Source: an uncultured Verrucomicrobiae bacterium (GTDB taxonomy: Bacteria; Verrucomicrobiota; Verrucomicrobiia; Chthoniobacterales; UBA10450). Taken from it: a stretch of 64,000 nucleotides of DNA. Below are positions 15,178 to 48,403 of this stretch, piece by piece. Position numbers and translations under genes: made by a program. The notes under the pieces are model-generated. The model made no database searches and was not told the origin of the DNA. It saw only the letters and a program-made list of their open reading frames with translations. Positions within the stretch are counted from its first letter, which is position 1. Each line of letters begins with the position of its first letter. The DNA lies in assembly GCA_963815455.1 (NCBI GenBank), contig CAWFGO010000002.1:320001-384000 (forward strand). Direction: 5' to 3'.

Positions 15178-16944
15178 TCAATGGGGCGAAGCATTGCTTG
15201 AGGCGACTCTTCCCACCGGAATGGCTTTGCGGATTTCCTCATGCGGTTGAAGATCGAGATAACGGGCCGCTTTTTCGGCGATCCGGGCAAAAATGGGGCC
15301 GGCCACAAGTCCGCCGTAGTTCAGTTCCGGCGTAGCTGGTGTGGGCATCGTCCAGCACCACCAATCCGACAAACTCCGGATGATCCGCCGGCAAATATCC
15401 GCTGAAAGAGACGACATATCTTCCTTGTTCGTATCCGCCTTTGGGATCGACTTTTTGCGCCGTGCCGGTCTTGCCCGCAATCATAAAACCCGGGACGGCG
15501 GCCGCCGCGGCGGTGCCGCGATCACTCACGACACCGCGCAGCGCATCGCCGATTTGTCTGGCTGTCTGGGGAGAAATTACCTGGCGCAACACGACCGGCG
15601 AAAGCGAGCTGATCGTCTGGCCGTCATCGGAGGTGATTGATTTTACGATCCGTGGCGTGACCAGCTTGCCGCCATTGGCAATGGCCGCCATCGCCAATGT
15701 CATTTGAAGGGGCGTGACTCCGATCTCATGCCCCATCGGGATTCGCGTAATGGAAATCTTGGTCCATGATTGGGGCGGCCGAATCAAGCCGCTGATTTCG
15801 CCGGGCAACTCGATCCCGGTCCGTTCGCCAAAACCGAACCGGCGAATGTATTCGTAAAATTTTTCTTCGCCCAGGCTGATGCGCGAGCTTGGCGGCGCCG
15901 ATGTTGCTCGATTTCACGAGCACATCCTTCACGGTCAAATCGCCGAAAGGCCGGTGATCGTGGAGCGCGGTCCCGCCAAAATGCCCATCGGCCATTCTCG
16001 CAAAAAATGACCGAGTCAGGCCGGAACCTGCGTTCGTTGAGCGCGGCGGCAGCCGCGACGATCTTGAACGTCGAACCGGGCTCCATCATGTCGATGATGG
16101 CGCGGTTTTTCATCTGCTCGGGTTTGGCCTGGGAGCGCAGGTTCAAATCGAAGCTCGGACGATTGGCCATGGCCAGGATCTCGCCGGTTTCGGGGCGCAT
16201 AAGAATGATTGTCGCCTTGTTAGGCGTATATTCGCGCATGGCGGCATCGATCTCGTTCTCCACGATGTTCTGCAGATTAAGATCGACAGTGAGCCGGACG
16301 TTGTAACCGTTGCGGGGCGCGCGTTCCTGCCCGCGATACAGAACGATCTCCTGGCCGGCCCGGTTCCGCTCGGTGAACCGGTAGCCGTCCTGACCGTGCA
16401 GATATTCTTCCATCGACGCTTCCACGCCCTGTATCCCGCGATGATCGAAATCGGTGAACCCGATCACGTGACAGAGCATCGGTCCGTTTGGATAAACGCG
16501 TTTGCTGTCGGGCTCGAAATAGATTCCGCCCAAATCCTGCTTTCGCATTTTTGCCACCAGCGCACCGGCCTCAGTGTCCGGCACTTCGCGCTTGAGCACG
16601 ATGTAACGACGGTCGCTGTGTAGTTTCTCTCTCAATTCCCGGGCCGGGATCTTCAAGGCGCCGCTGAGAAGATCGACAGTCGCCTCTATATTATTAAGAC
16701 GGCTCGCATCGGCCACGACCGTTTGCATCGGCACATTGTCCGCCAGCACGTCTCCGTTCGCGTCGAAAATCGCGCCGCGCTCGGCCCGGATGGTCTGCTT
16801 ATGAACGTGTTTTTCAGCGGCAAGCCCGGCGTATTCGTCGTGCTTGATCATCTGAATATAAACGAGCCGGAATGAGAAAATGCTGAAAAGCGCGGTCAAG
16901 CCGAGGCAAACGACCACGCAACGAATCCGGCTGTTCCACTTCAT
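15178..16944 (-). CDS. ftsI: Class B penicillin-binding protein FtsI/PBP3 (frameshifted)
   Basis: RGAIFD, RVYPNG, EPGSTFK (SxxK), KSSN (SxN) and GKTGTAQ motifs. Confidence 0.93.
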
Positions 16945-23636: not shown

Positions 23637-24886
23637 ATGAATAACGATCGCAGAGTAGTCATCACTGGCATGGGCGTGATCACGCCGATCGGCAATGATC
23701 TGGAGACTTTCTGGTCGAATCTCAAAAACGGCGTCAGCGGCATTCGCAAGATCGAAGCGTTCGACACCGCTGATTACGATTGCCGAATCGCCGGCGAAGT
23801 GCGCGACTTCGACGCGAAACCATTTTTCAAGAATCCAAAGGACGTTCGGCGCACCGATCGTTTCACCCAATTCGCCATGGCGGCGGCGAAAATGGCGTTG
23901 GAGGACGGCGGCGTTGATGCGGAGAAACTCCAGCGCGATCGCTTCGGGGTGATCGTCAGCAGCGGTATCGGCGGGCTCAAAACGCTCCAGGACCAGCACA
24001 CGATCCTGCTGACGAAAGGGCCGTCGCGAAATTCTCCGTTCACGATCCCGATGCTGATCAGCAACATGGCCAGCGGGATGATCTCGATGGAATACGGTTT
24101 GCAAGGCCCGAACCTTTGCATTGTGACCGCCTGCGCGACTTCCAATAACGCCATTGGCGAATCGTGGCGCATGATTAAGTTCGGCGACGCGGATATGTTT
24201 CTCGCGGGCGGTTCGGAAGCATCGATTGTCGCGATTGGTCTGGCTGGGTTTTCCGCCATGAGAGCGCTTAGCCTCGCAATGACGAACCGGAGCGCGCCTC
24301 GCGCCCGTTCGACCGCGACCGGGATGGCTTTGTCATGGGGGAAGGCGCGGGCGTGGTCGTAGTAGAAGAACTCGAGCACGCCAAAGCGCGCGGCGCGAAG
24401 ATTTATTGCGAACTGGCCGGGTATGGTCTGAGCGCGGATGCTTATCACATGACAGCGCCGCCGCCGGATGGCGAAGGCGCGGCGCGAGCCATGCAAATGG
24501 CGCTCAAGCACGCCGGCATCGCCCCCGAGGAAGTCGATTACATCAACGCGCACGCCACCTCAACGGACATTGGCGACATTTGCGAGACCCGCGCGATCAA
24601 GAAGGTCTTCGGCGAGCATGCGCATAAAGTTGCGATCAGCGCGACGAAATCCATGACCGGTCACTTGCTAGGCGGGGCTGGCGCGATTGAAATGGCAGCC
24701 TGCGCTTTGAGTATTCGTGATTCGGTGATTCCACCAACGATCAATCTGGAAAATCCGGATGAGGCCTGCGATCTCGATTACACGCCAAAAGTTGCCCGGG
24801 AAAAGAAAGTGCGCGTCGCCTTGAATAATGCCTTCGGTTTCGGCGGGCATAATGCCACGCTCATCGCCAAGGCGTTCGAAAGTTAG
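23637..24886 (+). CDS. fabF: 3-oxoacyl-ACP synthase II (one frameshift near 24272)
   Basis: [14 protein letters not shown] (catalytic Cys), [16 protein letters not shown] and FGFGGHN motifs. Confidence 0.95.
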
Positions 24887-24927: not shown

Positions 24928-25395
24928 CTACTGATCGACAAAAATGGGCGCGGCGGTAATATCCGCGGCGGTAAACTCCAGACCGTGTCCGCCCTGTTGG
25001 AGATTTTTCAGGAGACCCGCCACACTCTGCGCGGCTTGAGACGCGTAAAAACGCACCAGGCCGACAGTGGTGCGTCCGCCAAACACGGTGATCATGATCG
25101 CATCTTCATCGACTGAATTCATGAACACATGGCTGCCGTTACCCTGATGGTAAAGCGCATTGAACTCGACCTCGCCTATGCGCCGGGCGAGTTCCCGCGT
25201 GGCCGCGAACGAGCCGGCGGCAAGCGCAGCGATGATCGTGACATCCATGGCGTTCATATCGCCGAACTGCGAGATAACGTTGCCGCCGCGATCGATCACG
25301 ACCGTCAATTCGGCTTCCGCCTTTTTCAAAAAATCGGCGAGCACGCCGTCAAGGGAGGCGACGTCTTCAATGGTCAGGACAGGGATCGCGCTCAT
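24928..25395 (-). CDS. mglB: MglB-like roadblock/LC7 protein (putative GAP)
   Basis: VIDRGGNVI, ALAAGSFAATRELARRIGEVEF, YHQG and TVGLVR resemble M. xanthus MglB; 4-bp overlap with mglA. Confidence 0.85.
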   Translation of the reverse strand: MSAIPVLTIEDVASLDGVLADFLKKAEAELTVVIDRGGNVISQFGDMNAMDVTIIAALAAGSFAATRELARRIGEVEFNALYHQGNGSHVFMNSVDEDAIMITVFGGRTTVGLVRFYASQAAQSVAGLLKNLQQGGHGLEFTAADITAAPIFVDQ

Positions 25396-26069
25396 GCAGG
25401 AGTGGGCGCGCTCGATTCGTGCGCCGAAGGCGGCTCGACCGGAATGGCGATCGGCGCCACCGGTCGCTGCGGGACGTCGCTTTGTTTGCTGAACTTATGG
25501 AGCAATATCTGGGAAACAGCGTTTAACGCGGCAAACACGTTCTGGCCGGTGCTGGAAATGACCTCAAAACTCTGGAGCCGCTTCTTCCGGTTGTTCATGG
25601 TGTACTCCATGTAATTCACTGGAGCGATATCGGGCAGGTCGCGCTTGTTGTATTCGAGCACTAATGGGACATCGTCGATGGCGACGTTCTGAAGTGAGAG
25701 ATTTTCCTCCAGATTCCTAAAGCTCTCGACGTTCTCCTCCATTTTTTCCCATTGGGAATCGGCCACGAACACGATGCCGTCGGTGCTGCGCAAAACCAGT
25801 TGGCGGGTGGCGTTGTAGATGACCTGGCCGGGAACGGTGTAGAGCTGAAACTTGGTCACGAAGCCCTTGATGACGACCGCATTGAGCGGCAGAAAATCGA
25901 AAAACAAGGTGCGATCCGATGCGGTCGCCAGCGAAACCATGTCGCCCCGGTTCTTCGGGCTGATCCGCTGGTGGATGTAAGCGAGATTGGTTGTCTTCCC
26001 GCAAAGGGCCGGCCCGTAGTAGACAATCTTAAATTGAATCTCGCGGCTGGCGTAATTGATGATCGACAT
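25392..26069 (-). CDS. mglA: MglA-family small GTPase
   Basis: KIVYYGPALCGKTTNL, DRTLFFDFLP, LYTVPGQV, DGIVFVADS and NKRDL are colinear with M. xanthus MglA; R53 and Q82 are retained. Confidence 0.95.
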   Translation of the reverse strand: MSIINYASREIQFKIVYYGPALCGKTTNLAYIHQRISPKNRGDMVSLATASDRTLFFDFLPLNAVVIKGFVTKFQLYTVPGQVIYNATRQLVLRSTDGIVFVADSQWEKMEENVESFRNLEENLSLQNVAIDDVPLVLEYNKRDLPDIAPVNYMEYTMNNRKKRLQSFEVISSTGQNVFAALNAVSQILLHKFSKQSDVPQRPVAPIAIPVEPPSAHESSAPTPA

Positions 26070-26078
26070 ATTCTCGGC

Positions 26079-28226
26079 TCAATCCCTTCCCTGTGGTCCC
26101 GTTTCGGCCAACTCCGGTTGCGCGTAGGTGCGCGAAAGTTTCTGGACGATGGCCGTGAGTTCCTCTTGCGTTTCGACGGCGAGGCTCGCGCCGCCGGCGT
26201 GCACCGCCGTCAGGCAAATATTGCCTTCCATGAAAAATGTGAGCGACGAATCCGCGCAGTGCAGCGTCATCGCCTTGAAGGCGCCGAGTTTCGTGTCGTT
26301 AACGTGCTGGCCGATTTTCTCCCAAAGCGAGGGCGTCATTGCGCAAACGCCATCGGCGCTCAGTTCGGCTGGAATATTTCCGGCCAGGGATAGGCCATCG
26401 GCAAAACTAATCGCGCAGGCCCCCACCCCCGGCAGCGTCACGGCGCGGGCAACGACTTGTTTGGCATCGATGTCTTCGGTCGGCACGGGCGAAACGTCCG
26501 CCGTTGCGGCGGCTTCTTTTTCTTCCGCTTGAGGTTCGGGGGTGGCAGACTTCTTCTCCGCGGCGGCGATGGCGTCGAAACGTTTCGCGTCTTCCTCCGC
26601 CTGGATCGAAAATGGCGTTTTAAATTCTTCCTTAACTCTGGTTGCGTCCTCCTGATCGGCCCGCGTCCGTAGAGCGCCGGAAGGGAGATGCCTTAAAATT
26701 TCCTGCAACGGCAGCGTCACCGGCGTTTCGTTTTGATCGATTATGAATAATCCGCGATGCATTTCGGGGATCGCGCGGTGGAAAGCCTTGGCCGAAACGA
26801 TCACGCGACCGCTGGCAAGCTGAGGCTCGATTAGCGACATTGGAAATTCGACCAAGACATTCTCGTCAACAGACATCGGGCTGCCGTTCAATTGGAAGGC
26901 CGGCACCTCTTGCAAGAGCAGTTGCAGCGGCACTGCTAACTTGGTCCCGCCATTTCTCGGGCCCGATTTGATAGAAACGGGCGGCGCCTTTTCTTTCGGC
27001 TCGACTCCCGGCACCAAAGTAAACTTCGGACGAATATCCTCGGACGGCGACGTGAACTTGAACGGAATCCGCGGGGTCTTGGCCAACTTGGAGGACTCCG
27101 CGCTGGTGGCGGTTGGTTCCTTCGAGGGCGACTCGTCTTCCGGCTGCTTCGGTTGCTCCGCCGCTGCAGGAGGGACGTCTTTCTCCACAGCGGGCGATTT
27201 CAGAACCGGCGAAGGAGTTGGAACGGGCGGCCCGCTTGAGGCTGGAACTATCTCAGAGGCGGGCACACCCGTCCCGTTCGGTGGAAGATGAAACGGTATT
27301 TTCTGGGGAGAAATTGGCCCAACGTCATGCTGCTTTTTTTCAGGGGACGGGGTCGATGCGCCGGCGGCGATCGATGTCGATCCTAACGCACCCAGATCTC
27401 GCATCGATATGGCCGGACGGGATTGCTGCGGCGTAAGTTGTCGTGCCACTTCGCGAACGGCCGCTTCCGGCTCGGCGGCGGCAAGCGTTAGCGCGGTAGC
27501 GGGCTCAACTTTCACCGGTGGAGCCGCCGAAGCTTGCAGCGGTTTTACCGGAGTCCCAAACCGCTCCGTATCTTCGAGCGTCACCGTGAGGAAAGGGGTC
27601 TCAAGTTGCGGCACCGCCTGTTCGCATACTTGATCGGCGCGCACCTTTAGATTGGCGAACTGTTCCAGCACTTTGGTGAACGGCAGCAAAACCGGGGTGG
27701 AATCGGCCTCGGGGACACTGGTGAGAAAAATTTCCGGCGCTTGCTGGTAGATGCTGGCAAGGGGAACACTCGGTTGACCGGTTGCCATTCCCTTCTCGAT
27801 CTCCGAGGCCTTTAGAATAATGGACCGGGCCGCATCGAAACTGTCCGGCGGCTTGATCGTTTCCCGAGGCAATTGGTCGAGGATGTCGCAAAGCTGAAGC
27901 GAGATAGCGCGTTCCGCGTGCGGCTCTGGCGCAATCGCGGCCGCCTTTGGCGATGAGCGCGAGATTTTTTGAGAAGAATCGAGTGATATTGTGCGCGGCC
28001 CTGGAATCGTCGCGGGCTTTCCTATTGGCGCGGCACCACCGCGGGGTTCGAATCCAGCGGAGGCCATCCGCGCCCGCGCGGTGTTCGGCAACACTGTCTT
28101 GCTCAGGCGCTGGTCGCTCGGTTTTTCGACACGAACGATCCCCGACGGCGTGTGCTTGGTTACATGAACCAGGGGGAACAGCCGCTCTTTCACATTTTTA
28201 AAAAGATCGAGGAATGGAATCGTCAT
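26079..28226 (-). CDS. 715-aa protein: two copies of an unknown domain, Pro-rich linkers and a C-terminal roadblock-like domain
   Basis: Internal duplication (PVLLPFTKVLEQF...RADQ...ETPF...EDTERF versus PVTLPLQEILRHL...RADQ...KTPF...EDAKRF); C-terminal LPGVGACAISFADGLSLAG...CLTAVH. Confidence 0.8.
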   Translation of the reverse strand: MTIPFLDLFKNVKERLFPLVHVTKHTPSGIVRVEKPSDQRLSKTVLPNTARARMASAGFEPRGGAAPIGKPATIPGPRTISLDSSQKISRSSPKAAAIAPEPHAERAISLQLCDILDQLPRETIKPPDSFDAARSIILKASEIEKGMATGQPSVPLASIYQQAPEIFLTSVPEADSTPVLLPFTKVLEQFANLKVRADQVCEQAVPQLETPFLTVTLEDTERFGTPVKPLQASAAPPVKVEPATALTLAAAEPEAAVREVARQLTPQQSRPAISMRDLGALGSTSIAAGASTPSPEKKQHDVGPISPQKIPFHLPPNGTGVPASEIVPASSGPPVPTPSPVLKSPAVEKDVPPAAAEQPKQPEDESPSKEPTATSAESSKLAKTPRIPFKFTSPSEDIRPKFTLVPGVEPKEKAPPVSIKSGPRNGGTKLAVPLQLLLQEVPAFQLNGSPMSVDENVLVEFPMSLIEPQLASGRVIVSAKAFHRAIPEMHRGLFIIDQNETPVTLPLQEILRHLPSGALRTRADQEDATRVKEEFKTPFSIQAEEDAKRFDAIAAAEKKSATPEPQAEEKEAAATADVSPVPTEDIDAKQVVARAVTLPGVGACAISFADGLSLAGNIPAELSADGVCAMTPSLWEKIGQHVNDTKLGAFKAMTLHCADSSLTFFMEGNICLTAVHAGGASLAVETQEELTAIVQKLSRTYAQPELAETGPQGRD

Positions 28227-28229
28227 CTC

Positions 28230-29948
28230 TTAGCGGTCCTCCGATGTTACGCGCCAGATTTCCTCCAGCGTGGTGATTCCTTCGAGCGCTTTTTCAATTC
28301 CAACCATGCGCAACGTCTTCATTCCTTCGGTGACAGCTTGATTCTTGATCACGGCTGCTGAAGCGCGCTTGATCACCAAACGCCGCACCGTCTCGCTCAC
28401 GGGCAAAGCTTCGATAATTGCGACCCGGCCAAGGTAACCGCGCCCTTTGCAACGGTCGCACCCGCTGCCTTGGTAAAAAACTGTTCCGCTCTTGTCCTGG
28501 AGCGCGAGTCTCTCCAGCATTTCCGGTTCGGGGACAAATTCTTCCTGGCAATTGCTACAGATGCGCCGGACGAGACGCTGGGCGCAGCTCATCAGGATGG
28601 AACTCGAAATCAGGAACGGCTCGATGCCCATGTCATCCAAACGGGTAATTGCGCCTGCCGCATCGTTCGTGTGCAACGTGCTCAAGACCTGGTGACCGGT
28701 CAGCGCGGCTTTGACCGCGATATCGGCTGTCTCGTTGTCGCGAATTTCTCCCACCATCACGATGTCCGGGTCCTGGCGCAGGATGGAGCGCAGAGCGGAA
28801 GCAAAATCGAGCCCGATATCGCTGCGCACCGCCACCTGGTTGACGCCCATCAGCTCGTACTCGATCGGGTCTTCCACCGTTACGATGTTATATTCGGGGT
28901 TGTTCAGCTCGTGCAGAACCGAGTAGAGCGTTGTGGTTTTTCCCGAGCCGGTGGGTCCAGTCACCAGAATCATTCCGTGCGGTGCGTCGATCGACTTTTT
29001 GAACTTGGATAGCGTGTCCTGGTCCATACCCAACTGGTCGATCCCGCCGCTCAGAGAAGCCTTGTCCAGAATTCGGATCACGATTTTTTCGCCATGCGCA
29101 GTGGGGAGGATCGAGATACGCAGATCGACTTCCTTGCCCATCACCCGGATCCGGAACCGGCCATCTTGCGGGAGACGGCGCTCGGCGATGTTAAGTCCCG
29201 CCAAAATTTTGATGCGCGACGTGATGGCCAATTGCAACGCCTTCGGCGGCGATTCGGCCGGGATGAGCTCGCCGTCTATTCGGTAGCGTAATTTGAGCGC
29301 GGTGTGAAATGGCTCGATATGAATATCGGAAGCTTTTTCCTTCACCGCCTGGGCCAGGATCAAATTCACGATCTTGATGACCGGCGCGTCTTCGCTGTCG
29401 GAAGCCAGCCGATCGAGATCGATGTCCTCCCGCTTGGCGACCTGCACTTCCACCTCGCCCGCTTGCACCGCTTCGTCGGAAACTTGTTTGAGCACGGCGC
29501 TCATATTGCCCGCGCCGTGAATTCCGCTGAGCGTCTCAACCACGGCTTTTTCCGTGGCAATCATCGGCACGATCTCGAGTTGGACCCGGCGTTTCAGATC
29601 GTCCAGCGCGAGGACGTTCGTGGGATCGGCCATGGCCACGAAAAGTTTTCCATTCAGACGCGCGATCGGCAGCAGCTTGTTCGCTTTGGCCATTTCCCGC
29701 GGCACCAGTTCCATGACCTCCTCGGGTACACGCAACCGCGTCAGATTGATCGGCGGCGTGTTCAGACAACGCCCCATGCTAAAGGCCATGTCCTGCTCGG
29801 TAACGAATTGGCGATCCGTTAAAATCTTTAAGAGCCGGCCGCCTTCGTTCTTCTGAATTTCAACCGCTTCGTGCAGTTGATTGGGCAGAAGCAGTCCGTC
29901 CTCGATCAGGACATCGGCGATGCGTTCTCCGAAAGATTTACTTTTCAT
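28230..29948 (-). CDS. pilB: PilB/GspE-family type IV pilus assembly ATPase
   Basis: N-terminal MshEN/T2SSE_N region, ASDIHIEP, ERRLPQDGR, GPTGSGKTT, TVEDPIE, LRQDPDIVMVGEIRD, His box and Zn motif CSNC...CDRC. Confidence 0.93.
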   Translation of the reverse strand: MKSKSFGERIADVLIEDGLLLPNQLHEAVEIQKNEGGRLLKILTDRQFVTEQDMAFSMGRCLNTPPINLTRLRVPEEVMELVPREMAKANKLLPIARLNGKLFVAMADPTNVLALDDLKRRVQLEIVPMIATEKAVVETLSGIHGAGNMSAVLKQVSDEAVQAGEVEVQVAKREDIDLDRLASDSEDAPVIKIVNLILAQAVKEKASDIHIEPFHTALKLRYRIDGELIPAESPPKALQLAITSRIKILAGLNIAERRLPQDGRFRIRVMGKEVDLRISILPTAHGEKIVIRILDKASLSGGIDQLGMDQDTLSKFKKSIDAPHGMILVTGPTGSGKTTTLYSVLHELNNPEYNIVTVEDPIEYELMGVNQVAVRSDIGLDFASALRSILRQDPDIVMVGEIRDNETADIAVKAALTGHQVLSTLHTNDAAGAITRLDDMGIEPFLISSSILMSCAQRLVRRICSNCQEEFVPEPEMLERLALQDKSGTVFYQGSGCDRCKGRGYLGRVAIIEALPVSETVRRLVIKRASAAVIKNQAVTEGMKTLRMVGIEKALEGITTLEEIWRVTSEDR

Positions 29949-29954
29949 GCACGC

Positions 29955-30839
29955 TTAAGCCCGCGACTCGAGCCGGTAAATTCCCTGTAAACTTTTTACG
30001 ATCGCCGCCGGCCGGGCCAGGTACCAGGTCACGGTGTAATCGACCGATTGTTGCACCGCTTCGCGTCCGGCCGAATCGAACGGATTGCAGCACGCCACCA
30101 TCATCGTGCGACTGACCAGATCGAATGGCACGAAAAGACGACCGAGCGTCAGATAATCAGGCACCATCGGTGCGATCTGCCGGTCGACGTCGTAATATTC
30201 CAACGGCACGTAGGCAAACTTCGTCCGGTCGATCAGCGCCGAAAGCACCTTCTCCAGCTTCTCGACGTTCCCCTTGCAAAGCTGATCCAAAAGGGACTGG
30301 GCCAGCGCCTGGCCGGTCAAGTTCTTGTTCTGGTGCTCCACCACTTCCAGCACCGGCTTCACTTCTTCTTCGGGAAAGAGCTGTTGCACGATCAAAAATT
30401 TCGCCAGTTGATCCGTGCCGCGGTCGTGCAGGTTGGCCAGTTTGCCCACGTGGGAGCCGCCGCGAATGTCGATCAACGCCCCCTCCGTTCCGGTCGCGCC
30501 GTTAGTTCCTCCGGCTTTCGCAATCTCCGCGCCGGATGCTTGCAAACGCACTTCGATTTCGCCCAGCATGGCGAGGATATCTCCCGCGTTCGGTTCCTTC
30601 ACCAGGATCATCTCGCATTCCTCCATCGCCAGCGTGTAAGAACCGGCGGTGAAATAAGCCTCGGCCAATCGCCGGGAAGCACGCAAACAATCGTCGTGCC
30701 GCCCCACTTTTTGGTAAGCTTCCTTCAGAATTTCCAGCGATTGATAGTCGTCGGGTTGAGTTTGAGTGATAGCCTCAAACATCTCGATCGTCTGGACGAT
30801 CTGGTTGTGTTCTTGCTCCGACAGAGGGTGTTCCAGCAC
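29955..30839 (-). CDS. TPR-like plus T2SSE_N-like domain protein
   Basis: N-terminal helical repeats (PDDYQSLEILKEAYQKVG, LAEAYFTAGSY, EPNAGDILAMLGEI). The C-terminus (VPLEYYDVD...LFVPFD...MMVACCNPFD...LARPAAI) parallels the PilB N-domain. Confidence 0.75.
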   Translation of the reverse strand: MLEHPLSEQEHNQIVQTIEMFEAITQTQPDDYQSLEILKEAYQKVGRHDDCLRASRRLAEAYFTAGSYTLAMEECEMILVKEPNAGDILAMLGEIEVRLQASGAEIAKAGGTNGATGTEGALIDIRGGSHVGKLANLHDRGTDQLAKFLIVQQLFPEEEVKPVLEVVEHQNKNLTGQALAQSLLDQLCKGNVEKLEKVLSALIDRTKFAYVPLEYYDVDRQIAPMVPDYLTLGRLFVPFDLVSRTMMVACCNPFDSAGREAVQQSVDYTVTWYLARPAAIVKSLQGIYRLESRA

Positions 30840-31000
30840 AACGGGCTGTAAAAGCCAGAAACATGCCCCGACTGGCTAATCCCCCGAAAATCGCTCTTAA
30901 AATTGCGAATTTCTCAGCGCTGCAACCGAATCGCGCAAAAACGCCGGAAATCAGGGAACCGGTGCGAGGTCGCCTGTGTCGGACGCACATCCGCGCTATT

Positions 31001-31027
31001 TGTAGCGGCGGTGTCTGACCGTCGCAC
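31001..31027. repeat. GTAG-type REP (TGTAGCGGCGGTGTCTGACCGTCGC)
   Basis: Hairpin; near-identical copy at 51549. Confidence 0.75.
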
Positions 31028-31166
31028 TTAAGTCCGGAACCCGCCTGTCCCATTTATCCCAACTACGTTGGACGCATCCCCGCGTTTCCATTCGCCATGG
31101 TTGCCCTCGACCTCCGGTCCCTGATTGCCACTCGTCACTCGTCCGTCCTTTTGATATATTCACGCC

Positions 31167-31826
31167 GTGGAATCGTGCCGCGCTCGTCACTCTGCCTTCA
31201 CCCTGCTCGAACTCCTCGTGGTCATGGGAATAATCGCGCTCCTGCTCCTGGCCGTGATCCCGGCGGTCACGTCGATCTCAAAATCCAGCGGGCGCAAAGG
31301 CGCGATCAACAATCTGCTGGGGGCCATCGAGCAAGCCCGGACCGAAGCGATCAAGACTGGCCAGGCGGCGTATATCGTTTTCCCTGCGTTCGCCACCGGG
31401 TCGCAAACGACACTCGATCGCTACAACTACAAATCGTACGCAATCTTTCAGGACGATCCGGCGAATCCGGCCACGCCGAAACAGCTCGCAAATTGGAAAA
31501 CGTTCGCGACCGGTGTTGCGCTCAGGGCAGCCGGCCCCACCCCTCTCTCCGACCTGGCCGACCCCGCGACGCTCACTCCGGCGGTCACATTCAAGTTCAC
31601 GCCGGAAGAAGGCGCGGACACATCAGGGTTTCGTTGCATCAAGTTCAACGCAAACGGCGAAGTGGAAGGGCCCGCCGGCACTGGTAAGATCACGCTGGCC
31701 ATCTTCGAAGGATATGTAAATGGGGGCACCGAAGTCGTCACATCAGCAAGGACGGGCGGCGAACCAGCAGCCACGGAGTCGATAACCATCGCGCGCCTTA
31801 CCGGCCGCGCCGAACGCGGACCATGA
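31167..31826 (+). CDS. Prepilin, FimU/GspH-like (Verru_Chthon cassette D-like)
   Basis: Class III signal RHSA|FTLLELLVVMGII, AIEQARTEA and IKFNANGE. Confidence 0.85.
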   Translation: MESCRARHSAFTLLELLVVMGIIALLLLAVIPAVTSISKSSGRKGAINNLLGAIEQARTEAIKTGQAAYIVFPAFATGSQTTLDRYNYKSYAIFQDDPANPATPKQLANWKTFATGVALRAAGPTPLSDLADPATLTPAVTFKFTPEEGADTSGFRCIKFNANGEVEGPAGTGKITLAIFEGYVNGGTEVVTSARTGGEPAATESITIARLTGRAERGP

Positions 31827-32344
31827 AACATCGACAAGTTCTCTCTGTAACCGCGGGCGCCGACCGCGGCCCCGTGTCGCATCGATCCGCGTTCAGTCTC
31901 GTCGAAGTCGTGCTCGCGTTGGGCGTCGTTTCATTCGCGATCGTTGCGATTCTCGGCATCCTGCCAACCGGCCTGCAAACCGGCAAGTCATCGCAGGACG
32001 AGACTCGCGCGACCCAGCTGGCCCAGGCCGTTTTGGCGACCATGGCCAGTCAAGCGCCGACCCAGTTCAATCATGTCCAAATAGAGTTGAATGACGGTTC
32101 TCCCGTCCAGTTCGACCTTAGCGGTTCCGAGCCGAAGCCGGCGTTCTACGCCGACAACGATGGGAAAATGATCGGTGCCCCCGCGGGGGCGAGTTACAAA
32201 ATCGCCGTGACTACCAATGGCACCCCGCCCGGTTTCGATCCTGGAAACGCGAATCAAGTAACCGTCCGGGTATCCTGGCCCGCCAATGCGCCTCCGGCAG
32301 CTCAAACCTCACGGGATTATGTGCGAATCATTTCCAAATTCTGA
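31823..32344 (+). CDS. Prepilin, PilV/GspI-like (cassette B-like)
   Basis: RSA|FSLVEVVLALGVVSFAIVAILGILPTGL and VTVRVSWP. Confidence 0.85.
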   Translation: MKHRQVLSVTAGADRGPVSHRSAFSLVEVVLALGVVSFAIVAILGILPTGLQTGKSSQDETRATQLAQAVLATMASQAPTQFNHVQIELNDGSPVQFDLSGSEPKPAFYADNDGKMIGAPAGASYKIAVTTNGTPPGFDPGNANQVTVRVSWPANAPPAAQTSRDYVRIISKF

Positions 32345-33174
32345 CTCATCGGCGATGCGTCGACGGCGATTCTTCTGCGGGATTCACCCTGGTGGAACTG
32401 CTCATCGCGGTCACGATCACCGTCCTGATCGTGGTTCTGCTCGGGACGATGTTTGGATCGCTCACGAAAACGACTTCGCGGGCAAACCAGAGAACCGATG
32501 TTTTCCGCGATGCGCGCGCCGCCTTGCAGATGATCGAGCGCGACCTAACTGGTCTGGTGCGCGCTCAACAGACTGCGTATCTCGCGCTGGATAACATATG
32601 GCAGGCGGGAGACGATCCGTATGCGACCCGGACGAGTGCCACGCCGAACCTGCAACTCTTCGCCCTGATCGCAGCCAGGAACCAGCTGCCGGGCGGTGCG
32701 CCTCCGGGCGATGTTTGCGCGGTCGGTTATTACTGCGCCTGGGACAACACAAAACGTGCATATGTGCTCCGCCGTTTTTTTCGCAACAGCAAAGACATTT
32801 ACGAAGCAATCAAACCGCAGGTTGCCGGAAACACACTTAGCTACACCGGTGCTGCAGCGCTATACGTCCCGGCGGCTACGGACGACATCGTTGCGTCCTA
32901 TGTTTGGAATTTCAAAATCACAGCTTACAAATCCGATGGAACGAAAGACATTTCTTATCCGGGAAATGCCTTGATCGTTGTCGATCCGGGCAACCCTGAT
33001 CTCGTGCCACCGGCGGCGCTTGAGATTTCCTTCAACGCCATCAGTCCCGAAGCGGCACGAACAGTAACGAGCGTCTCCACCGACCCGGCGGATTGGATGA
33101 ACGCGACCTCGTCCAATCACATTCGCTTGATCACACCACACGCGTACGAGTTTCGGACACGAATCAATCTGTAG
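32319..33174 (+). CDS. Prepilin, PilW/GspJ-like (cassette C-like); probable indel in the leader
   Basis: SAG|FTLVELLIAVTIT in frame with ORF 32392, ARAALQMIERDL and AVGYY. The nearest ATGs (32319, 32355) are one base out of frame. Confidence 0.8.
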
Positions 33175-33176
33175 CC

Positions 33177-35782
33177 ATGCGACGCTTCTCGATCTTACCC
33201 AACGCGATCCAGAATGGTTTTGCCCTGATCATTACTCTGATCATGGTCGTGCTGGCTGCTGTGGTGGCTGTCGCCTTTGTCACCAATGCATCGCTGGATC
33301 GTCTTACCGCCAATTCCTTCAGCAAGAGAGCACGCGCGGAAATGGCGGCCCAATCCGGATTAGCCGCTGCCTTGAATGCGCTTTCCGGCGCGACTGGGCC
33401 AAATGATTTTCGATTTATCACCGCAGTCGGCGACGATGACGATCCCGCACACAGCAAGCCCGTTTTGATTCCGCTCAATTCCGATCCGACAACGGGCAAG
33501 GTGACTCTAGACGACGCTGCAAAGCGCGATCTCTATTCAATCGGAGCGGGCGCGACAATCACCCTCTCCGCAACCGCCATTCCCAAGGCGACCCGAACCG
33601 TTGGATTTGTCCCCATTACTACGAACGTTAACGGCGTCGATCAGGAGACAGAACGTTACGCGTTTTATGTCGATGAAGCGGGCAGTCGTCAGAATCTCGC
33701 CGTGCAAGGCGGAAAGGATCGCGTTTATGCCCGAGACCCGAATGAACTCCCGATCGTTACAGCCGAGGCCGCACCAGCACCATTCGCCGTAGCCCAAATC
33801 AGCGCGATACAGGATCAGCGAGCGTTATTGTTCACGCCACCGACGGCGAATCCGGTCCTATCGAATGCCGGCGCACCAACAACCCCGCCGGTTGACGACT
33901 ACGCCTACAGTATCGCTTCGGGGATAACGAATCTTAGTCCCGATAAGAAACCCCGGGTAAATCTGACGAAACTAAAAAATTACGTGGATGGACTCTCTGT
34001 CGATCAGGCGGCAGGCAATCCGAAAGCCGCTCTGGTAGACCGCCTGCTCACCCCGGGAGAGAGCGGACAGCCGAATGGGGCGGCGGCAATTTGTCGATCC
34101 TGACCAAGCTCGGTCACTATTCCACCGCGCAATCCCAACAAATCGTGGCGAATCTCATCGATTATCTGGACGACGATCTAATTCCGCACGACCGACAATG
34201 TCGATAATCCCACTTACTTTGGTGTCGAGGGAAAAGCGGATGCCCCCGGGAAAGTCGATGGTCATCCTTACATCAATTTCGTCGGCACAGGCTTGGTTTT
34301 AAATAAGAGCACGGCCGCCGGATTCCAAGGCGGCCTAAACTCCACACGAGTCCTTGCCGTATTGGGAATCGTGAATCCCTGGAGTCTTCCGACCAAGGAC
34401 TGGCCGACATTTGATAATTAAGCGCGGAGATCGACATCACGGTTCAGGGAGACGCGTCCGGGAGGGAATCTCGGCCCGCGGGCCAGTGACTATTTTCACG
34501 GCGTATTCAATACAACGGACTCGCGGCAATCAATTGTTGACCTTTCCGGTCGCACAGACCGCGGCAAATGCGGGATATTCTTTCCCCGCCCCTGCGAGCG
34601 CACCAACAAATTATGCGACCAATTACGATATTCTCGGCACGGTCGGCCGCCAACCCCCAGGGATGGTCTTCAGCGGCCTCGGTTTCAAAATCAACAAACT
34701 CCGGTTGAAGTATACACCGAGCACGGACGGCCGGAGCGGATACATTCAGGTCCTCGATAACTTGAAAAACAATCGCGCAGCCTGCCAATCCGAGCACGGC
34801 CGATATGGATCATTCTGGAGGGAGTTTGGTCTACAAATTCGCCAGCGGCGCGCCGGACAAGACCGATTTTCATCTCAATTCCGATCCCCGGCTTGGTTTT
34901 GTCGCCACCAACTGGCTGTTGTCAAAATCCACTGAAAGCGGTGCGGCACCCCCAACACCCCAAAGCAACGTCAACGTCTTTGCCGGGCATGACGCGAATA
35001 ACTGGGACTTTGCCGGAGCGGCGCCGAGCACAACAAATCACCTTTGGTACACAAAGACGGACGTCACGGCGAATTTTTACGTCAAGAGTCCTCCCAGCGA
35101 TGGGAGCAATCCCAAATTCGATTCAGCGGGGGAACTCGGTTATCTCCATACCGGTATTCCTTGGGAGACATTCCGCCTCTATGTGACCGGCGACGAAGCG
35201 AGCGGAAAGGAGCGGGACAAGGAACTGCTTGCTCATGTTCAGTCCGGAACATTTACCGATGCCGACTATGGAACAATTCCGACCCACACTGGCCAGGCCG
35301 ATCCCGGAACGCCGGTTCCGTTCCTTCGCGGCCCCTTGAATGTAAATACGAACAAGCGACCTACGTTGCAGGCGCTCTTTCTAGGCGCCAGCGAGAAAAA
35401 CGACAGTGATGCTACCGATAAAGCAAGAAATGGCGGAGACGGCCACGCCGTTGCCATCGCGGACGCGCTTGCTGGAAATGGAGCCGGGGCACCGTTCGCG
35501 CTCCCGGGCGATTTCCTTTCCCTGGCGGGCGTGAAGTCGGTGACGAATGAGCCCACGACGGATTTCGATCGAGAAGTGCTCGCCCGACGGACGGCCAATG
35601 TGCTCGGAACGCAATCGACCCGGTTCACCGTCTATGCTTTGGGCGAAGCCCGCGATAAAGTCGGCGGAACGATCTCGACCACGAGCACGGTAAATCTCCG
35701 TGCCGAAGTCGAGCTGCAAACCGATTCCACTGGCAAACCGGTTCCCAAAGTGCTGAGCACCGCCTACTATCTCACTAACTAA
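33177..35782 (+). CDS. Large PilX/GspK-like protein (cassette A-like), about 860 aa, frameshifted
   Basis: NG|FALIITLIMVV without E5, ARAEMAAQSG, RYAFYVDE, SAGELG, PWET, LNVNT and TQSTRFTVYALGEA; several indels between 34070 and 34800. Confidence 0.78.
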
Positions 35783-35789
35783 ACCTCAT

Positions 35790-36337
35790 ATGCGTTACAT
35801 CTCTTCTCGATCCAGCCTCACCTGCTTGCTCCTCGCGATGTCGATCTTGCCAGGTTTTGCTCAACAGCCCAGTCCGACTCCGAAACAGGTCACGATTCAA
35901 AATGTCACCCTGGAATCGGCGATCATGCCGGGGAGCACCCAGCCGTGGATAAAAGTCGTAACGCAGTTTCAGACTGCTCCGCGCTGGGCGGACGGAATTG
36001 TATTTCGCTATACATGGTTTTACTGGGCGCGGGCGATCAGTATCGAGTGCTTCCCGGAATCGTTCGATACGCCAACGTAAAAGGAGGCGGCAATCGAGCA
36101 GTGATGTACATCAGCCCAAATACGGCGGAAAGCTTTGGCGCGCCAATCACAGCGCACGTCAAAGCCTTCTACAAGGATGAGTTGGCTGACGATTTTGTGA
36201 TGAAGGGCTCAGGCAATATTCCCGCTGGCTGGGAAACGCAATATGACAAGTATCCCGGTCTCTTACTAACGGTCATTCAAACGCCCTGGTTGATCACCGA
36301 TTACTCGAATTCGCCAGACATTTTCGCCACGCAATAA
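35790..36337 (+). CDS. Secreted protein resembling the Amuc_1102 pilus-associated family (frameshift near 36008)
   Basis: Signal peptide and the motif string W.KV..QFQTAPRWAD...YMVLL...VRYANV...AVMYISP...PGLLL....TPW. The family match is from recall, not from a search. Confidence 0.6.
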
Positions 36338-36413: not shown

Positions 36414-36674
36414 ATGGCGATTACCATTTCTGCTACCGAGGCCGCGCGCAACTTTGGCGATTGTCTCGCCCGGATTAAACATACCGGGGAAACCTTCATC
36501 TTGAGCAAAAACGAAAAGCCGGTCGCCGCGCTCGGCCCGTTGCCCGGCACTAGAACAGTGACTTTTCGCGAACTGTGGGACGCATGGCGAAAATTGCCGG
36601 CGGATCCGAAGTTCGCCGACGATCTCGAATCGGTGAACGAGGCCGATCAACCTCCAAAAAATCCGTGGGATTAG
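36414..36674 (+). CDS. Phd/YefM-family antitoxin
   Basis: ISATEAARNFGDCLARI...FILSKNEKPVA; ends NPWD. Confidence 0.85.
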   Translation: MAITISATEAARNFGDCLARIKHTGETFILSKNEKPVAALGPLPGTRTVTFRELWDAWRKLPADPKFADDLESVNEADQPPKNPWD

Positions 36675-37084
36675 TCCTCGACACCTCGGCGCTGGTCGAG
36701 CTCGAACGGATGGGTCCAAACGGGCCAACCGGCGACCTGCCTTGGGACGAGGAACTAATTCTACCGGCGATTGTCTGGGCCGAGGCATTGGTTGGCGTGA
36801 GGCTGGCCGATACGCCGCTGCGAGCGGCGCAACGCCGGGCGCGTTTGGAGTCCCTTCGCGTTCGTTTGGCGATTGAGCCGTTCTCTATCGAAGTCGCGGA
36901 ACATTACGCGGATATCTTTGCGGAGTTAATGCAGTCTGGGACTATGATTCCGCAGAACGATATTGCGGTGGCAGCGACGGCTCGGGCCGCAAGTTTCGGT
37001 GTCCTTACGGGGCCGAATGATGAGAAACATTTTCAGCGCGTAACCGGTATGATCGTGCGCGTCCTGCGCGCGCAGCCGAGTTGA
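36665..37084 (+). CDS. vapC: PIN-domain (VapC) toxin
   Basis: GTG start overlaps the antitoxin; LVLDTSAL, IVWAE, IPQNDIAVAATA and DEKHF motifs. Confidence 0.85.
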   Translation: MGLVLDTSALVELERMGPNGPTGDLPWDEELILPAIVWAEALVGVRLADTPLRAAQRRARLESLRVRLAIEPFSIEVAEHYADIFAELMQSGTMIPQNDIAVAATARAASFGVLTGPNDEKHFQRVTGMIVRVLRAQPS

Positions 37085-45011: not shown

Positions 45012-45240
45012 TCGGTCAACCAAGGGGACAGGCAAAGTTGGCATCGATTGCCCTGGATGAACATTCCATGGGATACCAAAGCCACTATTTGGCTATCACT
45101 CCTGAGAAAATGGGTCGATTTTGTCTCAAATGTGATTAGAGACTTGGCAAATTCTCACGGGAGAGAAGAAAAACAGCCTGGTAATTATGGAAATTATATA
45201 TATAGGCATGTCCGGTGCTACCTTTTGTTGGCATCCTCAC

Positions 45241-45783
45241 ATGACAGCAATTCGACAAATTCCACCTCGACCAAGCGCGGCGAACGCGACTCGATTCGCG
45301 GTATCTAGCTCCAGCCGTGGCGCGGCAGGATTCAGTTTACCTGAAGCGGTAATCGGGATCGCCGTTATGGGTCTCGGAGTGGTTTGCATGGTAGGAGCGC
45401 TTAGCAAGTTCAACACCATCGCCAGCGTCGCCCGCAATACCACCGGCGCTTATACGGCGGTGATGAACCAGATCGACCTCATTCAATCCGACGGGCCGTT
45501 CAATCCCCAGAAGACAAACACCGACGGAACTCAACAGATCCCACCGGAGCTACGACTTGGTACTCAAACGCAGGCCAACGTCCCTGTCTATAGGGACCCC
45601 AATAGCGGAGTGGTCGTGGCCGGAACAATGACCACGACCGTCACGGATATCAGTTCCACATATACCAGCGGGTCCACCACCTTTTCGCTGATCATGTACA
45701 AAGCCATTGTCACCATTAACTATACCTATCTCAACAAAAACTACTCACTTTCCATGAGTACAATCCGGACATCTGACATATGA
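45241..45783 (+). CDS. Prepilin, PilV-like (second cassette)
   Basis: RGAAG|FSLPEAVIGIAVMGL; C-terminal beta strands. Confidence 0.8.
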   Translation: MTAIRQIPPRPSAANATRFAVSSSSRGAAGFSLPEAVIGIAVMGLGVVCMVGALSKFNTIASVARNTTGAYTAVMNQIDLIQSDGPFNPQKTNTDGTQQIPPELRLGTQTQANVPVYRDPNSGVVVAGTMTTTVTDISSTYTSGSTTFSLIMYKAIVTINYTYLNKNYSLSMSTIRTSDI

Positions 45784-46580
45784 AACTGGTTAAAATGAAT
45801 CGTGGATACACCATTGTGGAGATGGCAGTTTCAAGCGCCGTCTTTAGCACCCTTGGACTGACCCTCTGCTCCCTCCTGAACGTCACAACCATTCTCGGAG
45901 CCAAGAATTCCGCTTTGATCACAGCCCATCAGCAAGCTCGAACGGCCATGGTCGAGATGTTGGGAGATCTGCATTCGGCGATCTCCTTGCCCTACCTGGT
46001 CGATGCCGACGGCAATCAGGTTTCCGCAGCGGGTCCGGCCGCCGGCATCGCTTTTCAAACCTGGTCGAGCGGTCCCCACAAGATCAAAACGGATGCCACG
46101 ACCAATAATAATCAGATTACTCTGAAATTAACCTCTGGCAGCGGTCCAACACCGGTAGTCGGCCAGCGCTTGATTGTTCCCACGCACCAGATTGAGGACG
46201 ACATCACCGCAGTCAGTGGAAGCGCCGACAGCTTCACCGTCACCCTGGCGCATAATCTGCCGGTGGCGATCGCCGGGACGAGCACCTACACCATCGTCGC
46301 CTTCATCGCTGATCGCTGCTCCTACATTGTTTCAAACGGTTCGCTGGAATGGAGGGGCCCGACCACAGCGAGATCCTTCGCTGTGCTGAGCAATGGAATT
46401 ACCAATGCGACCCCCTTCAGCACGCCGCTCACGCCGGCTGGGGCGCTCTACTACCGGTTCGTTTCGGCAATCGACCTTTCCACCGCAGACTCCAATTACA
46501 GCAACCGCGGATTCAAGGCAGCCAACATTTTCCTCAATGGACAGGTCCCCATGAAGGCGCGGCTGACAACCTATCAATGA
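45780..46580 (+). CDS. Prepilin, PilW-like
   Basis: NRG|YTIVEMAVSSAV and QARTAMVEMLGDLHSA; 4-bp overlaps at both ends. Confidence 0.8.
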   Translation: MKLVKMNRGYTIVEMAVSSAVFSTLGLTLCSLLNVTTILGAKNSALITAHQQARTAMVEMLGDLHSAISLPYLVDADGNQVSAAGPAAGIAFQTWSSGPHKIKTDATTNNNQITLKLTSGSGPTPVVGQRLIVPTHQIEDDITAVSGSADSFTVTLAHNLPVAIAGTSTYTIVAFIADRCSYIVSNGSLEWRGPTTARSFAVLSNGITNATPFSTPLTPAGALYYRFVSAIDLSTADSNYSNRGFKAANIFLNGQVPMKARLTTYQ

Positions 46581-48403
46581 AAAACCTCAAAACGCACTCA
46601 GCCGCCAGTTCGCTCGTCGTTGTCCTGGTGACAATATCAACCCTGATGGTGGTTGTTGCCATCGCAGCAGAATACACGACGAATATCAGCCGGCTTGTCC
46701 AGCGCACAAGCAATCTACAAAGTGCCATCTCTGTCGCTGATGCCACCCTCGAACAGCTCTTTACCAACTGGCGAGCCATCTGCCGAGCAACTCCTACAGC
46801 CCCCTTGCCGACCAGTTCGTTTTCCGGGATCCCGCTTCCGACTGCTTCGCAGTTAAATCTGCCCAGCTCTCCAACCTTGGTCAAAGCGGGGACAGCTCCC
46901 AATTTAACCGACGAATACAATCCGGCCTACACAGTTTCCAACATCAAAGTCGTTGCTGTCGATGGAACCCTGCAACCTGTCGCGTCCGCCGGAACTCCGC
47001 CGACACCCGCCGTGGGCATGGGACAGACCGGCACGATCAACACGACAGCCGCGACTTATAATTATATCGCCTCGGCGGATGTCACGTTGTCCGCGGTCAC
47101 GACCAATATCGTGGCCAAGGTGCGTCGCGTTTTCTCCAAGCAACAGCTTTCGCCGTGGAACTGGGCGATCTTCTATGTTGATCCGCTGGAGATTCATCCC
47201 GGTCCGTCCTTTACCGTCACGGGATGGGTTCACACAAACTTCAATCTCTACACCGCACACGATACCCTCACGTTCGCTGACAAGGTTACCTATGCCTCCG
47301 ATTGGTTCATGAACTTCATGCCTGGGGACGGACAACATTCGGAGACTCCAACCAATCCGCATTGGCTTAGCAATCTCCCGCCGGCAAGAGATATCGCCTT
47401 GCAGCCTTTCGGTCTGGATTCGACGGCGATTTTTAGCACGAGTGACAGCAATCCGAATAATGACAGCTATCTCGAGCTCATTCAGCCCCCGGTGTCCGGA
47501 GTTGCCGATCCAATGTCCAGCCAGCGTTATTGGAACCAGGCCAGCGTAGCCATCAAGGTGGATTCCGGCAACAACCTGACCATAGGTCAGCCCAATACCA
47601 ATGGAACAATCACCGCCTTCAACACATCGAATCCGCTCTATCAGATGTTCTCCGGTGCGATCATTACGAATCAAACCATTCAGGACAATCGCGAGGCTGC
47701 CCCGATCCGGCTCGTGACTCTGGACATTAACCAGATTGAAAACAATACCAGCGGTCTCTCCCCCACTTACAAGGCATCGGGCTTTAATGGGATCGTGTTT
47801 ATTTACGACAGCAGCAACTCCTCATCTTCCCGAAGGGGAGTCCGGCTGATCAACGGCTCAAAAATTCCATCGCTCGGACTTACCGTTGTGAGTCCAAATG
47901 CGATCTACGTGAAGGGGGACTTCAATACCGGCGGCAGTCCGGCCTCGAACAACCCGGGCGATCCCACCATGCCCCAGGTCTCGGGCTACACGCGAGCGCC
48001 CTGCGCCATCATCGGGGATGCCGTCAACATCCTCTCCAACTCCTGGAATGATTCCGATTCGTCCGCCGGACTCAGCTCACGCGTGGCCAGCAATACGACG
48101 ATCAACTCGGCAATCCTGGCTGGCATTGTGCCGACCGCGCCCGTGGGAGGCGACGGCACCTATAGTGGCGGGGCCGAAAATTTCCCGCGCTTTATCGAAG
48201 ACTGGTCTCATGCGGTCCTCACTTACTACGGTTCAATGGTGGAACTCTACCAAAGCCAGCAATCGAACGGAAAATGGGGAAGGGCCAACGTTTATAATCC
48301 CCCCACCCGTCGCTGGTATTTCGATCCGAACTTCAAGACCAAGCCGCCCCCGGGATCGCTCATGGTCTACAGCTACCAAAAAGGCCGATGGTATTTGCAG
48401 TAA
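46577..48403 (+). CDS. Large PilX-like protein with HpsA-like C-terminal domain
   Basis: Hydrophobic pilin-like N-terminus without E5; LEIHPGP.F.VTGWVHTN and YSGGAENFPRFIEDW...YYGSMV...YNPPTRRWYFD...PPPG. Confidence 0.75.
   Translation: MKNLKTHSAASSLVVVLVTISTLMVVVAIAAEYTTNISRLVQRTSNLQSAISVADATLEQLFTNWRAICRATPTAPLPTSSFSGIPLPTASQLNLPSSPTLVKAGTAPNLTDEYNPAYTVSNIKVVAVDGTLQPVASAGTPPTPAVGMGQTGTINTTAATYNYIASADVTLSAVTTNIVAKVRRVFSKQQLSPWNWAIFYVDPLEIHPGPSFTVTGWVHTNFNLYTAHDTLTFADKVTYASDWFMNFMPGDGQHSETPTNPHWLSNLPPARDIALQPFGLDSTAIFSTSDSNPNNDSYLELIQPPVSGVADPMSSQRYWNQASVAIKVDSGNNLTIGQPNTNGTITAFNTSNPLYQMFSGAIITNQTIQDNREAAPIRLVTLDINQIENNTSGLSPTYKASGFNGIVFIYDSSNSSSSRRGVRLINGSKIPSLGLTVVSPNAIYVKGDFNTGGSPASNNPGDPTMPQVSGYTRAPCAIIGDAVNILSNSWNDSDSSAGLSSRVASNTTINSAILAGIVPTAPVGGDGTYSGGAENFPRFIEDWSHAVLTYYGSMVELYQSQQSNGKWGRANVYNPPTRRWYFDPNFKTKPPPGSLMVYSYQKGRWYLQ

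Follow-up and report, generated by a model that had tools for sequence, protein, structure and literature searches.

An operon joining an MglA/MglB switch, a repeat-Roadblock protein, and a PilB-type ATPase in Chthoniobacterales, with a possible role in type IVa pilus control

The window analyzed here is a 64,000-nucleotide stretch of contig CAWFGO010000002.1 (positions 320,001 to 384,000) from an uncultured Verrucomicrobiae bacterium of the order Chthoniobacterales. In it, five minus-strand genes encode a tetratricopeptide repeat (TPR) protein with a PilB N-terminal domain, a PilB-type extension ATPase, a large protein that we call X, the small GTPase MglA, and the Roadblock protein MglB (Table 1). 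The operon is a fusion of two older modules, the TPR-N-domain protein with PilB and X with MglA and MglB, behind one sigma-54-type promoter. The reading that we favor, by somewhat better than even chances, is that X anchors and possibly activates MglA, that MglB turns MglA off, and that PilB, transcribed together with them, is licensed by this switch as the motor of a type IVa pilus with its remaining parts dispersed over the source genome (G000; contigs C1, C2, and C3; 90% complete). With a Ras-like MglA/MglB switch, a pilus motor, and a putative scaffold in one operon of common soil Verrucomicrobia, this would be a compact route different from that of Myxococcus.

The five genes are spaced by 6, 3, 9, and -4 bp, and an intergenic region of 327 bp (30840-31166) separates them from a divergent plus-strand cassette. 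A preliminary description of the locus, made from its sequence, had reported this packing and divergence, and its coordinates, strands, lengths, and gap all stand. The linkage that it proposed is also found in related genomes. Our close loci are the best 80 of 387 MglA matches in GTDB genomes, which are close kin and not independent cases, and each count is limited to loci with enough flank. Among them, mglB lies directly downstream of mglA in 79/79 and X before mglA in 70/70, with pilB in 61/61 and the TPR gene in 55/55; the complete five-gene set was present in 54/54 Chthoniobacterales loci. The nearest named relatives are Chthoniobacterales/Spartobacteria metagenome-assembled genomes. The whole unit recurs in one genome of another class (G044); in a second such genome (G101), the cluster is rearranged but includes pilB. 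The order mglA then mglB had been reported correctly, but because mglA precedes mglB at every surveyed phylum locus where both were detected, it is a trait of the phylum and not a mark of this operon.

The two modules were traced in an order sample of 81 genomes and in a phylum sample, one draw of 301 genomes. In the order, the TPR protein and MglA were both found in 34/81 genomes, and in 28 of these 34 they lie no more than 8 kb apart on the same contig. In the phylum, MglA was matched in 20/301 genomes, 19 of them strongly, and the repeat domain of X in 17/301, all 17 among the 19 genomes with a strong MglA. The same repeat was found in 42/42 MglA genomes of the order sample, one of them weakly, plus one extra genome (E 3.6e-4). 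Judged by this distribution, X is a dedicated MglA/MglB companion. The TPR protein was matched in 72/301 phylum genomes (E<=1e-6); 12 weak matches with the look of PilB N-termini or N-domain-only proteins were dropped, and 45 of the 60 genomes left have no MglA. Twenty distant TPR loci, mostly top-scoring, were fetched, and 19 held the full TPR protein. The TPR gene faces a pilB-pilC operon in 12 of these 19, and genes for a sigma-54 activator and for pilins often come next; G110 also has pilM-type genes and a secretin close by, and G240 has a pilM-like gene, some of these labels being given by eye. These phylum distributions and neighbors assign the TPR protein to PilB and X to MglA and MglB.

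The promoter-like site ahead of the first gene has the form GG-N10-GC, which we take to be sigma-54 from the consensus, and the genome encodes rpoN and several sigma-54 activators. One example of such a promoter is found in PMC6211767. A GG-N10-GC site stands 12-15 nt ahead of the TPR-gene start in 60/61 distinct upstream regions of relatives, against 0.4% of shuffles, by a strict pattern written after the motif was seen. With a looser pattern, fixed before looking and with a background of 6.2% of 1,915 long open reading frames, the site preceded three of five more genes predicted to be partners, namely pilA, the lone pilC, and pilM2, and none of four others, including the divergent cassette; the remaining two partners, the C2 secretin and the second pilA, had no site by this pattern. 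Among relatives, the site precedes pilM2 in 27/27 and pilC in 18/27 (shuffles about 0.055), the Amuc_1102 gene in 2/11, and the divergent cassette in 2/42. The strict pattern occurred between the TPR gene and pilB in only 2/9 other-class loci. With the site this close to the first start codon, the operon transcript would be nearly leaderless; scans of the operon for sigma-70 promoters and terminators gave chance-level results. A short inverted repeat at 30900-30912 of the window, about 45 nt upstream of the promoter and loosely kept in 16/61 relatives, may be a regulator or integration host factor (IHF) site.

Protein X is composed of an N-terminal amphipathic-looking segment, two repeat domains set in Pro/Ser/Ala/Thr-rich linkers, and a C-terminal Roadblock domain. 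No transmembrane segment was found in X, and in a moderate test of amphipathicity, 46/93 N-termini fell in the top 5%, against 24% of control blocks. The repeat domain spans about 125 residues, and an AlphaFold2 model of repeat 2 has a mean predicted local distance difference test (pLDDT) score of 88.8. By its profile, this uncharacterized, predicted GTPase-binding domain has 1,777 representatives at 50% identity. The top homologs of X are named only “hypothetical” or Roadblock, and the ESM Atlas returned only hypothetical Verrucomicrobiota clusters, under 0.9, for the repeat. For the repeat model, Foldseek found no match at E<=0.001 and no chain among 48,161 reached Z>=5; as the rows of the structure search covered only residues 94-142, we do not claim a new fold. 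Aligning the Roadblock profile of X with MglB alone by hhalign gave nothing. Distant X homologs (L053, L056, L059-L062) carry a ComEA-type helix-hairpin-helix and are often encoded divergently from mglAB, by DUF4388, receiver, or MshEN genes. Two giant proteins (P0077 and P0104) have seven X-repeat matches, one with N-terminal membrane-like segments and Roadblock-like ends and the other with a receiver domain.

The preliminary description had suggested looking for pairwise interactions among the five proteins, and one pair, X repeat 2 with MglA, came through a controlled prediction. The input was MglA(1-198) with GTP, Mg, and X repeat 2, run together with three controls. The predicted complex scored 0.85 versus 0.36 for the best control, contacts agreed at >=98% between runs, and the partner pLDDT was at least 88. 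The score mark is reached by 116/157 solved and 2/215 mismatched pairs, a calibration that is rough here, with our own alignments and with ligands. In the model, the tail of the repeat (94-125) meets MglA residues 35-40, 62-67, 107-114, and 147-194, on the alpha4/alpha5 and beta2-beta3 face, with the switch loops uninvolved; the interface columns of the repeat are conserved above the remainder (0.58 vs 0.42). X repeat 2 is thus predicted to bind MglA. In Myxococcus, alpha5 and the beta2-beta3 loop of MglA (L64, I67, K181, K185) make up a pocket to which the C-terminal helix of MglB binds (PMC6785124). The predicted X contact overlaps this pocket (MglA 62-67 and 174-194). Unlike at the Myxococcus site, the predicted ligand is another protein, the K181 and K185 positions are occupied by N183 (51/52 aligned MglA rows) and Q187 (37/52), and the MglB tail is devoid of the acidic triad of Myxococcus MglB, a single conserved Asp being seen in close relatives. 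A change of ligand at this pocket would fit these replacements and the altered tail. The proteins encoded together in the operon are few and soluble, and the one interface predicted between them is specific and mutable; how MglA reaches the pilus motor and what activates it could therefore be addressed in vitro.

Among solved structures, Myxococcus and Thermus homologs were found for MglA (E 1e-63) and for MglB (E 2e-17 to 6h5b_B), the latter with a homologous Roadblock fold. Group 1 MglA proteins are defined by an intrinsic arginine beside the G2 Thr, the G3 motif TVPGQ, and a coupled mglB (PMC4316618). As R53 and Q82 are present in 52/52 rows, with T78-Q82 invariant, the operon’s MglA belongs to Group 1 by this definition. 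In that survey, Verrucomicrobia appear only with the Group 5 MglA of Methylacidiphilum, according to the searched part of its supplement. MglB would act as the GTPase-activating protein (GAP) for MglA. The type of MglB with an acidic C-terminal helix, acting as both GAP and guanine nucleotide exchange factor (GEF), does not correspond to what is seen here, where neither a D/E-rich tail nor the basic alpha5 residues of MglA are found. Of the Myxococcus polarity module (RomR/RomX, MglC, and Frz), the search of the 90% complete genome gave only one PF03259 match besides X and no CheW, RomR/RomX lying outside this search; flagellin and GGDEF were not found either. With CheW not found, there is no sign of a Frz-like reversal input, and with flagellin and GGDEF also not found, reversals of the Myxococcus type need not be assumed. 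The genome has five matches to DUF4388/PATAN over cut-off, which may be inputs.

Several variants of the mglA locus were noted. In family f8 (L186/G372 and L187/G362), TPR-PilB genes are followed by a degenerate MglA without catalytic motifs, and no mglB was detected; in G372, a single case, a short X with one repeat lies between TPR-PilB and this degenerate MglA, which keeps the X-contact face. In L068 (G030) of family f7, a second copy of MglA is followed by a pilin and a T2SSE-family ATPase in place of mglB. In L063 and L064, a 211-214-aa gene lies directly before mglA and looks by eye like a shortened TPR-N-domain protein, with no profile match.

The TPR protein is modeled with five TPR-type helices (residues 8-109), which are strongly conserved, a linker, and a free PilB N-terminal domain (residues about 142-290). 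The window ATPase scores 635.5 bits with TIGR02538 (cut-off 675.65) and 616.7 bits with the GspE model TIGR02533 (cut-off 630.25). In a tree of 21 rows, in which the GspE row sits on a long branch and the second, split tandem ATPase was left out, it groups (97/97) with TPR- and pilC-linked ATPases of other Verrucomicrobiota, apart from GspE and the C1:391k ATPase. By its place in this tree, the window ATPase is a member of the type IVa pilus clade, and a grouping with type II secretion GspE, which the preliminary description had named as a risk, was not obtained. PilB has the Zn motif; its cyclic di-GMP (c-di-GMP)-binding motif is degenerate, its NF053729 score is 37.1 (cut-off 38), and an RLG-type motif had no match in the 18 ATPases scanned. 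Control of PilB by c-di-GMP was considered and rejected, as the RLG-type motif was not matched and no GGDEF was found in the genome. At the other-class loci L174, L177, L166, and L165, a Pro-rich gene lies downstream of the TPR gene, together with one that looks by eye like an ATPase gene of the ExeA/MshM type.

The operon is not self-contained, as had first been proposed: the platform (pilC), alignment complex (pilMNO), secretin, major pilin (pilA), and PilT are all encoded elsewhere, with pilC and pilM carrying the same promoter type. Of the machine that the preliminary description wished to see, PilT, PilM, and secretins are indeed in the genome, but none is within the operon. The inventory comprises four PilB/GspE, five PilT/PilU over the TIGR01420 cut-off, three PilC/GspF, two PilM loci, three clear secretins, and a prepilin peptidase; one GspE lies beside GspD, and tandem ATPases lie beside another pilC. 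The lone pilC (C1:504911) is the best match of 12/12 PilC proteins from TPR-facing pilB-pilC operons. In relatives, pilC is found within about 5 kb of mglA in 6/27, and pilB, pilC, or a pilin beside mglA recurs in G044, G101, G030, and six f1 genomes. Among 31 family genomes, G010 and G404 are devoid of MglA, PilM2, and the lone-type PilC yet keep Amuc_1101, and PilC was also not found in G008; these family tallies take in G003 or G008, which are unpublished, and no conclusion depends on these two by themselves.

In the mechanism that we propose, the TPR-N-domain protein and PilB would form the extension motor of the scattered type IVa pilus, and X, MglA, and MglB a GTPase switch in which X is a membrane-attached scaffold. 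The amphipathic N-terminus would hold X at the membrane, the repeat would grip MglA on its alpha4/alpha5 and beta2-beta3 face, off the switch loops, and the Roadblock domain could pair with MglB or with itself. In this way X would gather MglA at a given place or activate it there, and MglB would switch it off. PilB in that place would be licensed by MglA-GTP, either directly or via the TPR-N-domain protein, so that MglA would control PilB and possibly polarity. Such an operon points to surface motility, adhesion, or DNA uptake being under regulation in a dominant soil lineage of Verrucomicrobia. More tentatively, and in our view rather doubtfully, X may be an MglA regulator of a new class. As a scaffold attached to the membrane, it would place its repeat in the allosteric pocket of MglA, replacing the MglB tail and RomR/RomX, and recruit MglB through its Roadblock domain. 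Together with the free PilB-N-domain protein, it would then belong to a circuit of five proteins that needs no SgmX and by which abundant soil Verrucomicrobiota position and switch their type IVa pili. Polar pilus control would in that case have been solved independently in these bacteria.

Several observations weigh against a switch that controls PilB. The halves are separable, as the many phylum genomes with the TPR protein and no MglA indicate, and the switch and motor modules are unlinked in G089, G196, and G306. In family f7, MglA and X are present in 8/8 genomes, but neither the TPR protein nor a PilB at E<=1e-190 was found there; TPR and PilB occur without MglA or X in G351 and G394, and the co-loss in G010 and G404 (g10) is one event. 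That CheW was not found also counts here. As for the contact, the MglA interface columns are not better conserved than the remainder (0.78 vs 0.83), a control with the repeat retained and MglA exchanged still scored 0.36, and the tail motif of the repeat decays in distant X homologs. The X-MglA prediction may also have passed partly through likeness, because a helix-on-alpha5 complex (MglA-MglB) has already been solved.

These points bring forward the first alternative, that of co-expression without control, in which X, MglA, and MglB run another localized process (a pole or envelope hub, a second PilT/PilB-type motor, or DNA uptake) and share only the sigma-54 promoter with the motor. The independent loss of each half, the unlinked modules in most other classes, and the distant X homologs with a ComEA-type helix-hairpin-helix beside DUF4388/receiver genes would all agree with it. 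However, the tight packing is kept across several families, pilus genes recur beside mglA in the genomes listed above, MglA and the pilus parts were lost jointly in g10, and MglA acts on pili in Myxococcus (PMC7668184). This alternative is the main rival of the favored reading, though on balance unlikely.

The operon most likely works, by analogy, like the MglA-SgmX-PilB pathway of Myxococcus but is not a member of it, as the SgmX architecture is absent and the constant partner is different. That pathway reportedly also runs through FrzS/SopA. The two systems have in common a Group 1 MglA (Arg53/Gln82) and a Roadblock MglB, and in both genomes a type IVa PilB is accompanied by PilC, PilM, and PilT. 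Unlike in Myxococcus, the genes here form one operon, the constant companion of MglA is a repeat-plus-Roadblock protein without a Pfam family, and neither the 14-TPR architecture of SgmX nor CheW or GGDEF was found in this genome. In M. xanthus, MglA-GTP recruits PilB via SgmX (PMC11580455, PMC7668184), by a mechanism called unknown in the Myxococcus work (PMC11580455), and SgmX consists solely of 14 TPRs, which bind MglA-GTP (PMC7668184); RomRX as a GEF is disputed in PMC13408092. Both the route from MglA to the pilus motor and the activator of MglA are thus open even in Myxococcus. In Bdellovibrio, MglA and Bd2492, a remote SgmX homolog, form a polar hub (PMC7668184). This resembles the operon in that MglA is tied to a TPR protein, and possibly to pili, outside Myxococcus, and differs from it in that a pilB operon is not mentioned in the excerpted description (PMC7668184). 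Among the matches listed in a literature search that combined MglA, MglB, or pili with the names Udaeobacter, Chthoniobacterales, and Verrucomicrobia, none described such a system, most subscription papers being outside its coverage; the preliminary description had likewise known of none.

This comparison bears on the second alternative, close to the original proposal, in which the TPR protein is an SgmX-like effector of MglA-GTP and the operon and divergent cassette make one self-contained system. Its TPR helices are strongly conserved, those of SgmX bind MglA-GTP (PMC7668184), a lineage-specific gain of MglA binding is possible, and the cassette adjoins the operon in 42/49 close loci. Yet the TPR protein mostly occurs without MglA and has five helices and a PilB N-domain in place of 14 TPRs, which makes it a poor stand-in for SgmX, and the platform genes lie elsewhere. 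The cassette, moreover, is missing beside the operon in 4/18 f1 regions and in 4/4 other-family regions with flank (L046-L048, L052), and with the promoter motif in so few cassettes its place in the system is not upheld; overall, this alternative is improbable. That the ATPase serves type II secretion or the Amuc_1098-1102 machine, and not a retractile type IVa pilus, is very improbable: its PilB and GspE model scores are close and both under cut-off, and the cassette genes weakly match GspH/I/J/K models, but the genome encodes a distinct GspE next to GspD, as well as tandem ATPases next to another pilC, the tree sets the window ATPase apart from GspE and the one included tandem ATPase, its orthologs sit with pilC, a sigma-54 activator, and pilA (in G110 and G240 also with pilM-type genes), and MglA is lost with PilM2/PilC and not with Amuc_1101.

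Table 1 Features of the operon and its neighbors in the window, and other pilus parts in the source genome
Feature	Position	Strand	Remarks
TPR + PilB-N-domain gene	29955..30839	-	294 aa; Pfam TPR + MshEN
PilB-type extension ATPase gene	28230..29948	-	572 aa; Pfam T2SSE + MshEN
Protein X gene	26079..28226	-	715 aa; whole protein without Pfam family
mglA	25392..26069	-	225 aa; Pfam Arf/Ras; Group 1 MglA small GTPase
mglB, GAP candidate	24928..25395	-	155 aa; Robl_LC7 (PF03259 over cut-off)
Sigma-54-type (GG-N10-GC) promoter-like site	30853..30868	-	ends 13 nt before first start codon
X repeat 1	27492..27920	-	residues about 103-245; without Pfam family; 24% identity to repeat 2
X repeat 2	26526..26951	-	residues 426-567; compact beta/alpha domain + conserved tail helix; predicted MglA-binding unit
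X Roadblock/LC7 domain	26100..26483	-	profile vs solved Robl_LC7 proteins, E 8.8e-12
FimU/GspH-like minor pilin	31167..31826	+	divergent cassette; probably not co-regulated with operon
PilV/GspI-like minor pilin	31823..32344	+	TIGR02598 39 bits, below cut-off 51.4
PilW/GspJ-like minor pilin	32355..33174	+	likely ATG (32355) out of frame with pilin motif
PilX/GspK-like large gene	33177..35782	+	three frames here; intact 888 aa in G001
Distant Amuc_1102 paralog	35790..36337	+	two frames here; G001 copy intact (181 aa) and the only one in the loci fetched
pilMNO	C3:451497		other pilus part in genome
pilA	C1:1446k		other pilus part in genome
Secretin	C2:193-195k		other pilus part in genome
Minor pilins	C1:1000-1003k		other pilus part in genome

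The divergent cassette, with three pilin N-termini and one PilX/GspK-like gene in its plus-strand run, is probably a variable neighbor and not part of the operon. It weakly matches Verru_Chthon A-D and falls below every cut-off of the Verru_Chthon models TIGR02596-02600 in the window, in G001, and in the large genes of four relatives; it is likely a distant Verru_Chthon variant. Outside the genus, its proteins are mostly 24-58% identical. The last gene had been described as Amuc_1102-like, and it does look like a distant paralog, as its G001 copy has 30% identity over 122 aa to the genome’s NF042424 member; however, NF042424 itself gave no match at E 1e-5 for this intact copy, and the frame is broken in the window. 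Because ftsI and fabF of the window (15784-16944 and 23637-24886) also look broken, the frameshifts in the cassette are most likely assembly indels, probably long-read errors. The pilus-like Akkermansia Amuc_1098-1102 cluster, whose Amuc_1102 this last gene recalls, has a full copy in the genome (C1:630772-638257, all five genes over NCBIfam cut-offs), but the operon’s ATPase tracks a second machine (PilM2 and the lone PilC).

Protein similarity linked none of the genome’s three minor-pilin cassettes to a particular machine. The third, at C1:1000227-1002989 on the minus strand, has a sigma-54-type site 31 nt upstream, lies among PEP-CTERM-like and TPR genes, and is a candidate for the tip complex of the operon’s pilus. 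The second, at 45187-48403 of the window on the plus strand, has PilV/PilW/PilX-like genes, the large one weakly matching HpsA, and is without a sigma-54-type site. Finally, a VapC-like PIN toxin gene lies just after the divergent cassette, at 36575-37084 on the plus strand of the window.

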